Assembly: GCA_020631955.1 (NCBI GenBank)
Contig: JACKGL010000002.1
Location: 13,860-77,859, forward strand
Length of the DNA stretch: 64,000 nucleotides
Reading direction: 5' to 3'
From: Candidatus Nomurabacteria bacterium
GTDB taxonomy: Bacteria > Patescibacteriota > Minisyncoccia > Phycocordibacterales > UBA9973
A model generated the notes under the pieces. It did not search any database, was not told the origin of the DNA, and was given only the letters and a program-made list of their open reading frames with translations. Shown here in pieces: positions 23,340 through 26,300 of the stretch (positions are counted from its first letter, which is position 1; each line of letters opens with the position of its first letter). The position numbers were made by a program, and so were the translations under genes.

Positions 23340-26300
23340 CCTAGTAAGATTCGGGTCATTAGTACTCCTTGGCTAAATACATTGCTGCACTTACACCTAG
23401 AGCCTATCAACCAGATCATCTCTCTGGTCCCTCAACGATTTCTAATCTTGAAGTTGGCTTCCCTCTTAGATGCTTTCAGAGGTTATCCATTCCCAACATA
23501 GCTACCCTGCGGTCCCTTTGGCAAGAGAGCAGGTACACCAGAGGTCAGTTCACTCCGGTCCTCTCGTACTAGGAGCAAATCTTCTCAAAAATCGAACGCC
23601 TGCAGTAGATAGGAGACCAACCTGTCTCACGCATCTATGTTTTACTTCATATAAAACCGCGTTTATTTGTTTTATATGAACCTCTATTACTAGAGGGATC
23701 GGACTATATCTTCATCCCATATAGCTCAAGTGAGCGTAGTGGGAGACCAACATGTAGTCTCTACGGGCTTTGCTTTAGCAAATTCCCTCGGTATTGTCCT
23801 GTGCATCAGGATTTCACCGATATTAGTTGGTGGTACAACAAGTAATTACTTACTTGTGTCGCCGTGATGATGTCTTTTTGATTCCAAATGTCTCAACAGT
23901 GGAATCACCTCGGGCTCAAACGGGTTCAAGTCGTGATAACCTGTCATGTCTTGTATGTGAAAAATTAAGTAAACTTAATTTTTCACATACAAGACACAAC
24001 TGATCATAACCTGAACGGTTTGAACCCAGCTCGCGTATCTTTTTAATTGGCGAACAGCCAAACCCTTGGGACCTTCTCCAGCCCCAGGATAAGATGAGCC
24101 GACATCGAGGTGCCGAACTGCACCGTCGCTATGGACGCTTAGGTGCAACTAGCCTGTTATCCCCGGAGTAGCTTTTATCCGTTAATCTTCACCCGTGTCT
24201 AAAACGTGGTGTCGGTTCACTATGTTCTACTTTCGTATCTGCTCGAGATGTACCTCTTACAGTTAAGCACGCTTATGCCATTACACTATCGGCACGGTTT
24301 CCATTCGCGCCTAGCGTACCTTTGTAAACCCCTCCGTTACTCTTTAGGAGGGTGCCGCCCCAGCAAAACTACCCGCCAAATACTGTCTCCGCAGGTTTTG
24401 TCCCTACGGGTTAGAACATACCAAATTACAGAGTGGTATTTCACTGACGACTCCACTATCCCCAAGAGGATAGCTTCAAAGTCTCCCACCTATGCTACGC
24501 AGTAATCTAGTATGCTCAATATCAAGCTATAGTAAAGCTTCCGGGGTCTTTTCGTCTATCTGCAGGTAACCGGCATCTTTACCGGTATTGTATTTTCACC
24601 GAGCTGTTCCTCGAGACAGTACCCCACTCATTACGCCATTCGTGCGCGTCGGAACTTACCCGACAAGGTATTTCGCTACCTTAGGACCGTTATAGTTACG
24701 GCCGACATTCACCAGGGCTTATATCAACCACCAATAATATTGCTATTAAAAACGTCGATATTTGACCTTCTGGCATTGGTCAGGCGTCACCCCCTATACA
24801 TCCTCTTACGAGTTCGCAGGGAGCTGTGTTTTTGGTAAACAGTTGGCAGGGTTTCTTTCGCTGCGGCCTATATATTGCTATATAGGCAAGCCTTATTGCT
24901 AACTTACGGCTGCTATTTTGCCGAGTTCCTTGAGGAAGACTCACTCGTTCGCCTTGGTCTTCTCGACCTGAACACCTGTGTCGGTTTGCGGTACGGTTTC
25001 TCTATATTTAGAGCTTAGAGGCTTTTCTCGGAAGCGTGCTTTACACAATCACAGTAGGCGAACCTACCATTTTCGATATAGCTTGCAGTATTCTTATCCG
25101 GATTTACCTAGATAAGCCACTTACTATACCAACAGAAATCCAATAATCTGCTGCATATACTACACTCCGTCCCCCCATCGCAATATAGAGAAGTCATGGA
25201 ATATTAACCATGTATCCATCGGCTGCGACTTTCGTCATAACCTTAGGACCGACTAACCCTTCGTTGATCACCATTGCAAAGGAAACCTTGTTCTTTCGGC
25301 GTGCAGGGCTCTCACCTGCATTGCGGTTACTTGTGCCAACATTCTTACTTCCATACACTCCAGCATGACTCACGTCTTTGCCTTCAGTGCAGTATGGAAT
25401 ACTCTCCTACCGATATAAATTTCCGAAGAAAAATATATCCCCCAATTTCGGTACAATACTTAGCCCCGATTATTTTCGGCGCAAATTCTCTCGATGAGTG
25501 AGCTGTTACGCTTTCTTTCAAGGATGGCTGCTTCTAAGCCGACCTCCTCATTGTCAGAGAAATTTCACCTCCTCAAGTTGCACTTAGTATTGATTTAGGG
25601 ACCTTAATTTGGGATCTGGGCTGTTCCCCTTTTGACGCATGGAGCTTTGCCCCCACTGTCTAACTGCTATGCTGTTAACCAAATGGTATTCGGAGTTTGA
25701 TAAGAAAGACGAAGTTTCCCCCTGTTCTTTCTTTCCAGTGCTCTACCCCCATTGGGAACGCATAACGCTAACCCTAAAGTTATTTCGGAGAGAACCAGCT
25801 ATTACCAGGTTCGATTAGCTTTTCACTCCAACCCACAAGTCATCCGAATGTGTTGAACGGCATATCGGTTCGGTCCTCCCTCCGATCTTCATCGGAGTTC
25901 AACCTGCTCATGGGTAGCTCACCTGGCTTCGGGTCTCTAAACTGTGACTTAATCGCGCTATTAACACTCGGTTTCCCTTCGGCTTCGAGATTACCTTCTC
26001 TTAACCTTGCCACAATCTACAACTCGTTGGCTCATTCTTCAATAGGCACGCCGTGACGGATATAAATACCCGCTCCGACTCCTTGTAAGCATATGGTTTC
26101 AGTACTATTTCACCTCCCTCTCGGGATACTTTTCACCTTTCCCTCACGGTACTAGTTCACTATCGATCTCTATATATATTTAGCCTTACCGGTTAGTCCC
26201 GGCAGATTCCTCAAAGCTATTCATGTCTTAGAGTACTCAAGAATGGCATTAAAAGTTGGAATGTTTTCGGATACAGGACGTTCGCCTTCTTTGGTGTACT

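Follow-up and report, generated by a model that had tools for sequence, protein, structure and literature searches.

The 23S ribosomal RNA (rRNA) gene of a Candidatus Nomurabacteria bacterium is interrupted by 383 nucleotides (nt) in helix 93, part of the peptidyl-transferase centre, which raises the questions of what this insert is and how the two parts of the rRNA could be joined across it. We analyzed the gene in a stretch of 64,000 nt of contig JACKGL010000002.1 (assembly GCA_020631955.1, positions 13,860 to 77,859 of the forward strand), here called the window; its numbering is used throughout, and the rRNA genes are located on its minus strand. A previous sequence-only reading had proposed a group I intron without an open reading frame (ORF). 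Judged by its sequence, the insert is an ORF-less group I intron, which by its class is of the self-splicing type. It is most likely removed by guanosine-initiated splicing, probably with a bipartite recognition of the 5' exon, in which one part of the exon would be held by a helix and the other by a distal guide.

On the minus strand, the 5' exon ends in ...GCGAGCUGGGUUCAAACCGU with its last base at 24015, the insert runs from 24014 to 23632 (UCAGG...AUAGAUG, 383 nt), and the 3' exon restarts at 23631 as CGUGAGACAGGUUGGUC. This placement of the boundaries is the only one that regains the conserved junction CCGU-CGUGAG. The Rfam large-subunit (LSU) rRNA model aligns to the gene end to end and skips approximately 387 nt at exactly this junction. 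When the spliced junction is mapped onto the annotated 23S gene of Escherichia coli (2904 nt), the U preceding CGUGAGACAG is position 2593, and the control positions A2451, G2553, U2585, and A2602 are found at their expected places. The extent of the insert and its location after U2593 (site L2593) thus agree with the sequence-only reading, as do the U at the end of the 5' exon, the terminal G of the intron (G23632), and the lack of any ORF longer than 58 amino acids (aa) overlapping the insert on either strand. An identical insert (100%) is present in three further independent metagenome assemblies, and therefore it is not an artefact of a single assembly. Communities with this strain are represented by the assemblies ERZ28659597, ERZ27248697, and ERZ28660125 and by run SRR6747804. 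One 23S gene was seen in the 64-kb window.

A search restricted to this region matches the insert to the Rfam group I intron model RF00028 at positions 23879-23680 with a score of 54.3 bits and E = 4e-13, above the gathering score of 50. The match is absent from the gathering-score scan of the whole window, for which the speed filters are the presumed cause. The R element GAGACUACAUGUUGGUC (23761-23745) and the S element AAGAUAUAGUCC (23712-23701), the pairing of which into P7 had been predicted from the letters, were found, and the core alignment places them in this helix. A guanosine-binding site is indicated at the sequence level by the pair G23761-C23701, the bulged A23760, the pair G23759-C23702, and the J8/7 segment AAGAUAUAG. 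The J8/7 sequence of the window core is AAGAUAUAGUC, and the Tetrahymena L1925 intron is nearly the same in J6/7-P7 and J8/7-P7' (GAGACUA... and AAGAUAUAGUC) and has a bulged A beside the presumed guanosine-binding G-C pair. The window intron differs from that of Tetrahymena in its insertion site, its bacterial host, and the absence of P5abc; furthermore, the Tetrahymena guide is located about 20 nt from the 5' splice site.

Relatives of the intron were collected in two scans. The first covered the GTDB species representatives and required an S element followed by the L2593 3' exon within 45-75 nt, which gave 59 loci; the second covered metagenome contigs and added 36 loci. One locus of the genome scan (L028) is a chance match inside a coding region and was left out. 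Approximately 90 relatives are located at the L2593 site, and their named records are almost all metagenome-assembled genomes (MAGs) of Patescibacteria, also called the candidate phyla radiation (CPR); a few records from the first scan are labelled as other phyla or merely as 'bacterium'.

Two structurally different group I lineages, which we defined in this analysis as families A and B, occupy L2593 in CPR genomes. Family A is represented by 24 complete copies, mostly from Saccharimonadales (for example L007, L009, and L011). Its introns start with AAAUUACAUU-GCGUUCU and contain a textbook internal guide at +11, which pairs with the exon AGAACGU and forms the U•G pair. They have a large insertion, approximately 60-80 nt by eye, between P7 and P3', and frequently have a length of approximately 780-800 nt and an ORF of 160-225 aa; the single family-A ORF that was scanned against Pfam, from L011, is LAGLIDADG_1. 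Both the family-A introns at L2593 and the introns at L1917 in the same genomes have ordinary proximal guides. Family B comprises 56 distinct copies, including that of the window (other examples are L002, L018, and L051), and lacks P7.1/P7.2. In the window intron, P7 (..GACUAC) is followed after only 2 nt by P3' (GUUGGUC). The ORF screen of the 28 genome-derived family-B copies yielded one LAGLIDADG_1 ORF (L036, Pfam), and the window intron, with no ORF above 58 aa, encodes no LAGLIDADG homing endonuclease. The hosts of families A and B differ at the exon base pair 2590-2604, which is A-U versus C-G, respectively. The exon of family-B hosts always reads A(A/G)ACCGU, followed across the junction by CGUGAGACAGG; in the metagenome scan, no family-B core was found beside AACGU/CAGTT exons, and all hosts had the CCGU/CAGG variant. 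From these records, family B appears to be a widespread lineage restricted to CPR bacteria. The sequence-only reading had connected the site with introns of the I-CreI type. The site itself, insertion after U2593, is that of LAGLIDADG-type L2593 introns, among which we count the chloroplast I-CreI intron; these LAGLIDADG-type introns correspond to family A, whereas the window intron belongs to the distinct and mostly ORF-less family B.

This assignment was made with a covariance model, R1, built from 22 family-B cores from which the window was excluded. The window intron scores 181.4 bits (E of about 7e-49) against R1, which is within the range of family B (107-222 bits) and above those of family A (30-83 bits) and of group I introns at other 23S sites (20-66 bits), and therefore it is placed in family B. 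Its nearest relatives are approximately 70-75% identical over the core, and by the model score it is a clear, though sequence-divergent, member of the family. The R1 score and the RF00028 match together bear out the proposal of a group I intron.

The consensus of the core, derived from an alignment of 15 compact family-B cores, contains P2 with a GNRA-type loop, P3, P4, a short P5, P6, P8, P9 with a GUAA loop, and P10. The P7 pseudoknot, composed of GACUA/UAGUC and the G-C pair beyond the bulged A, was added by hand. Standard pairs fill 94.7% of the cells of the alignment, compared with 35-41% when the partners are slid by one to three columns, and the observed covariation score of 0.48 contrasts with no more than 0.10 for slid partners. 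There are 29 pairs with changes on both sides, and none of 500 shuffles reached the observed values. Covariation is found in P2, P3, P5, P6, P8, and P9; P4, P7, and P10 are invariant, hence uninformative in this respect. P10, the pairing of CACG with the initial CGUG of the 3' exon, was recovered by RNAalifold in 13-15 of the 15 sequences. All helices are present in the aligned window sequence, and its non-standard pairs are limited to a few in P8. According to these comparisons, a group I core is present from P2 to P9 with the P3/P7 pseudoknot. A fragmenting intervening sequence (IVS) processed by RNase III was considered and rejected: the full group I core is present, whereas such a sequence would be a simple extended hairpin with no ribozyme core, and the insert is located in helix 93, which is neither of the sites (23IS2 and 23IS4) that PMC11270868 equates with known IVS positions.

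The 5' side of family-B introns is organized into helix a, a short linker, and hairpin b. In helix a, exon positions -13 to -4 pair with the intron segment GUYUGAAYCC; 8-10 of the 10 pairs are formed in all 28 genome-derived introns, and all 10 in the window, where the intron strand is located approximately 94 nt downstream of its exon partner. Compensatory changes occur at exon position -8 (C-G in 26 introns, U-A in 2) and at position -6 (A-U in 11, G-C in 16). Hairpin b, of which 7 of 8 pairs are formed in the window, covaries at its first pair (+1), which is one of U-A (16 introns), A-U (5), U•G (3), C-G (2), and G-C (1). Both elements were also found by an anchor-free tabulation of the 56 introns, and the thermodynamic fold of the 5' region of the window recovers helix a and hairpin b with z = -11. 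The first base of the linker, opposite the splice-site U, is A in 56 of 56 introns and never G (54 by the anchor-free tabulation and 2 by eye). The second base is C in 51 of the 56 distinct family-B introns.

In an alternative reading, the intron is functional but has one conventional P1, composed of helix a, AC:GU, and hairpin b, in which the splice site is a U-A pair and the conserved downstream motif CACGGCGG serves otherwise, for instance as a tertiary contact or as the base of P2. The continuous helix is the thermodynamic prediction, covariation is found on both sides of the splice site, and U-1 and G-2 face an A and a C that hardly ever change; two of three non-C variants (the AUG linkers of L070 and L087) have a U, which still pairs with G-2. 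U•G is the near-universal 5' splice-site pair of group I introns. If pairing sufficed, a G opposite the splice-site U would be expected to be allowed or preferred, but it occurs in 0 of 56 introns. A single P1 also provides no P10, and it leaves unexplained an 8-nt complement of the ligated exons at the canonical place beside P2. We therefore consider a single P1 unlikely.

The 8-nt complement is the proposed internal guide, which is found 58-253 nt into family-B introns, at +149 in the window, and always directly 5' of P2. Its sequence is CACGGCGG in 49 of the 56 introns, CACGGCGA in 3 (the window, L069, and L072), AACGGCGG in 2, and UACGGCGG and AGCGGCGG in 1 each. The 8-mer is the exact complement of the ligated CCGU-CGUG, with the wobble U•G at the splice site. 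Its GCGG half pairs with CCGU and its CACG half with CGUG, which is the canonical strand order of P10 and then P1, next to P2. All seven variant guides retain at least 3+3 pairs, and the change of G to A is found only opposite exon position -4, which is also covered by helix a. The U•G pair at U24015 is possible only with the distal guide (23862); the partner in the local helix is the invariant A. The window intron has the complete set of family-B elements: helix a, hairpin b, a linker that starts with A, and the guide CACGGCG(G/A) at a distal position beside P2. Of the fold from P1 to P9 with an internal guide, which had been left to be established, P2 to P9 were located; the 5' end is atypical, with the splice-site U facing A locally and U•G available only through the distal motif.

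Two other candidates for pairing with the exons were discarded. The segment GCGGUUU near the 3' end (around 23662) is a perfect partner of AAACCGU; it is located inside P9.1 and is not conserved in relatives. The UCACG in hairpin b (23936-23932), a candidate P10 strand, is absent from relatives. Hosts with AACGU/CAGTT exons, in which covariation of the guide could be sought, contained no family-B introns in the metagenome scan, which is negative evidence only. The cores at L1917 and other sites are too distant for such a comparison: they have ordinary proximal guides, and the guide positions cannot be aligned.

Two further observations concern the guide sequence. A conserved AAGACAU (23876-23870 in the window) is located a few nt upstream of the guide in most family-B introns, and no pairing partner was identified for it. 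A guide-like stretch, ACGGCGGC, is present in the 23S rRNA itself at the equivalent of approximately position 1900 of E. coli; it reads GAACGGCGGCGGUAAC in L032 and L040, and AACGGCGGCCGUAAC in E. coli. It has 7-8 nt in common with the family-B guide, which is probably a coincidence, and is a source of spurious partial R1 matches; some of the partial matches at other sites are the rRNA's own AACGGCGGCC segment.

The most likely route for the removal of the intron is the standard two-step transesterification initiated by guanosine, which would restore CCGU-CGUGAG. Helix a, of 10 base pairs (bp), would tether exon positions -13 to -4 and thus hold the cleaved 5' exon. The exon CGU would pair with the guide GCG to form a short functional P1 with the canonical U•G, stacked on helix a, and the CACG half of the guide would then align the 3' exon through P10 for ligation. 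Hairpin b, the intron strand of helix a, and one further hairpin would together make up a structured insertion within the loop of P1. With U opposite A, the helix that continues from helix a through AC:GU into hairpin b is probably a ground state or an alternative conformation. The coordinates of these elements are listed in Table 1.

Several points weigh against this mechanism. The nearest-neighbor fold pairs the splice-site U with A and not with G. The functional P1 of the window would be just 3 bp long (GCG/CGU), and its formation within the internal loop that separates helix a from hairpin b would need a pseudoknot-like geometry. The guide is proposed from conservation and complementarity; the exon bases are the same in all family-B hosts and provide no covariation information. 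The terminal G of the relatives was fixed by the search pattern, and its conservation is no independent evidence. Furthermore, the splicing of the window intron is predicted from its sequence, and the literature searched contained no report of transcript or biochemical evidence for it or for another CPR L2593 intron.

A tentative and rather doubtful extension of the proposed mechanism is that family B represents a previously undescribed group I architecture, in which a module in the P1 loop would tether the exon and mask the splice site in a U-A pair before a switch to a P1 of 3-4 bp with the distal guide. Since G2581-C2590 would be tied up in helix a, and with them the peptidyl-transferase bases G2583, U2584, and U2585, the P1 switch could couple splicing to the folding of 23S rRNA or to ribosome assembly.

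Table 1. Features of the intron and its host gene in the window, listed in the order of transcription of the minus strand.
Feature	Position	Strand	Support or remark
23S rRNA gene (intron host)	23340..26707	-	RF02541, 2385.7 bits, model positions 1-2925
Helix a, strand in the 5' exon (-13 to -4), GGGUUCAAAC	24018..24027	-	10/10 pairs with 23921-23912; covariation in 28 relatives; minimum free energy (MFE) fold
Exon -3 to -1 (CGU), proposed P1 exon strand; U24015 is the 5' splice-site nt	24015..24017	-	Complementary to guide GCG with U•G; inferred
Group I intron (383 nt) following the equivalent of E. coli U2593	23632..24014	-	Sequence, LSU gap, RF00028, model R1 (181.4 bits), numbering
Hairpin b, from intron nt 1	23926..24014	-	+1 pair covaries; fold z = -11
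ACCC linker joining helix a to hairpin b, its A opposite exon U-1 and its C opposite G-2	23922..23925	-	56 family-B introns
Intron strand of helix a, GUUUGAGCCC	23912..23921	-	Pairing; covariation; MFE fold
Extra hairpin GAUUCCA...UGGAAUC between helix a and guide	23880..23906	-	Inverted repeat I7; MFE fold
Proposed internal guide CACG-GCGA	23859..23866	-	CACG (23866-23863) with 3' exon CGUG (P10); GCG (23862-23860) with CGU (P1, U•G)
P2 hairpin, GUAA-type loop	23836..23858	-	All 9 pairs with compensatory changes
Catalytic core P3-P8	23701..23832	-	RF00028 alignment; covariation in P3, P5, P6, P8; P7 invariant
P7 strands	23761-23755 and 23706-23701	-	Bulged A 23760; presumed G-binding pair G23759-C23702
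P9, GUAA loop	23697-23681	-	4/6 pairs with compensatory changes
P9.1 hairpin	23680-23646	-	Inverted repeat I2
Intron terminal G (omega-G)	23632	-	Sequence
3' exon start CGUGA, P10 partner	23627..23631	-	Sequence; RNAalifold
5S rRNA gene, downstream of 23S (context)	23159..23266	-	RF00001, 77.1 bits

In relatives of which L051 and L010 are examples, hairpin b has 32-36 nt; in the window intron it reaches 89 nt and includes a perfect palindrome with a 27-bp stem (23998-23945), the duplex of which could be a substrate of RNase III. It is very improbable that the window carries a decayed or splicing-incompetent copy of the intron, which would either be tolerated in the mature 23S rRNA or be cut by host nucleases, for example by RNase III at the 27-bp hairpin, to give a fragmented 23S rRNA. 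The long perfect duplex would make a plausible substrate, as deduced from the general specificity of RNase III, and a 23S group I intron of Chlamydiales provides a precedent of an unspliced intron (Everett et al. 1999, cited in PMC11270868). The window also has the guide GCGA in place of GCGG, but the same GCGA recurs in two other lineages (L069 and L072), at the position that is also under helix a. Against decay, the core and peripheral helices are intact except for a few P8 pairs, and the model score is within the range of the family. In addition, helix 93 belongs to the peptidyl-transferase centre, and with a single 23S gene in view in the window, neither a retained 383-nt insert nor a break at this place is likely to be tolerated.

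No second copy of the palindrome arm was found in the 64 kb (at most 3 mismatches) or in the fetched loci, apart from contigs of the same strain. An origin of the palindrome as a mobile element resembling a miniature inverted-repeat transposable element is not supported: it is present as a single copy, and the two copies of the 17-nt direct repeat that flanks it share just 76% identity. A comparison of close relatives with and without the palindrome gave no variation, because the contigs that share the neighboring proteins belong to the same strain (99.97-100%). We treat the palindrome as a strain-specific, private expansion of hairpin b with no evident role. Other family-B members have unrelated expansions at the place of hairpin b. 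Short tandem-like repeats are present in peripheral loops: CAACAACCAAC... in L025, CUAGAAC... in L002, and AAAGUC... in L029, L044, and L056. Hairpin b and P9.1 may therefore be hot spots of repeat expansion.

Some 23S genes of CPR bacteria or of neighboring phyla contain many group I introns: model R1 has at least six matches in the 23S gene of L040 (approximately 4100-7340; labelled as a Dormibacterota MAG) and at least five in that of L032 (approximately 1500-4200). Close to the beginning of the L043 sequence (1-241), a truncated family-B intron is directly preceded or followed by a tRNA-like 3' half, a junction that could be a misassembly or a rearrangement.

The sequence-only reading had implied a CPR host, and the exons and neighboring genes confirm this. 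Over the same 1.2 kb, the 23S exons are 82-87% identical to those of Paceibacteria/Parcubacteria MAGs versus 73% to those of E. coli. The genes flanking the rRNA (rplJ, rplL, a mechanosensitive channel, secD, secF, and others) have homologues with 45-69% aa identity, located in the 23S flanks of Nomurabacteria, Zambryskiibacteria, Taylorbacteria, and Paceibacterota loci. By these sequence comparisons, the host of the intron is a CPR bacterium of the Paceibacteria/Parcubacteria type. The 23S-5S pair is unlinked from 16S and flanked directly by protein-coding genes; neither a 16S rRNA gene nor tRNA genes were found across the 64 kb (window 1-64000). The remainder of the excess length of the 23S gene is a 60-nt hairpin-forming insertion in domain I (26337-26396, minus strand), between LSU model positions 312 and 313; an IVS-like element and an expansion segment are both conceivable identities for it.

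Downstream of the 5S gene, small ORFs of 149, 182, and 151 aa (21390-23086, minus strand) have no Pfam match. A fourth small ORF of the same group, of 187 aa, is located at 20704-21267; the Pfam scan covered the other three. These ORFs have common repeated segments of 117-142 nt with 90-97% identity, and their order and copy number differ in one contig of the same population (L103). Elsewhere in the window (55279-58820, plus strand), a 704-aa protein with an SHMT-family match is followed by a protein with a Por_Secre_tail match; this sorting domain is typical of Bacteroidota and unexpected in a CPR genome.

The site and the intron class have been described before. In the survey of rRNA insertions in CPR bacteria by Tsurumaki et al. 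2024 (PMC11270868), which used the same Rfam model, 45% of 968 insertions in 23S genes are classed as group I introns. Position 2593 is listed there as a recurrent group I site and among those where LAGLIDADG_1 ORFs are common. The window intron shares the host clade, gene, site, and Rfam model with these introns; the available text mentions LAGLIDADG_1 ORFs and describes no secondary structures, and the window intron is ORF-less. The sequence-only reading was right that rRNA introns are known in CPR bacteria; its statement that they are rarely characterized does not hold for the class, given the catalogued site and the roughly 90 relatives.

Thermophilic cyanobacteria (Synechococcus and Thermosynechococcus) have L2593 group I introns of the LAGLIDADG type with a P7.1/P7.2 feature of approximately 65 nt (PMC1995217). 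They have in common with the window intron the site after U2593, the group I ribozyme, and a short P5. Family A resembles them in its P7-P3' insertion, LAGLIDADG_1 ORF, and proximal guide. In contrast, the window intron lacks P7.1/P7.2 and an ORF, and has a GNRA-capped P2, the distal guide, and the exon-tethering helix. Group II introns, in which EBS1/EBS2 bind IBS1/IBS2, likewise use two intron segments on adjacent stretches of the 5' exon; this is a functional analogy only, because group II introns are an unrelated class of ribozymes with a different chemistry, and no homology is implied. Targeted text searches of the L2593 literature, in the text available, found neither a split into two lineages nor a description of helix a with a distal guide, and no experimental splicing of a CPR L2593 intron.

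The window intron is a further member of an already catalogued class and an ordinary feature for its clade. As an annotation it matters little, since CPR 23S genes are known to be rich in group I introns and position 2593 is catalogued. The occupation of one site by two lineages, one bearing homing endonuclease genes and similar to the introns of organelles and cyanobacteria, the other compact and almost always ORF-less, bears on how introns spread and persist without a homing endonuclease. If the exon-tethering helix and the distal guide act as proposed, they would be an unusual means of 5' splice-site recognition for a group I ribozyme.

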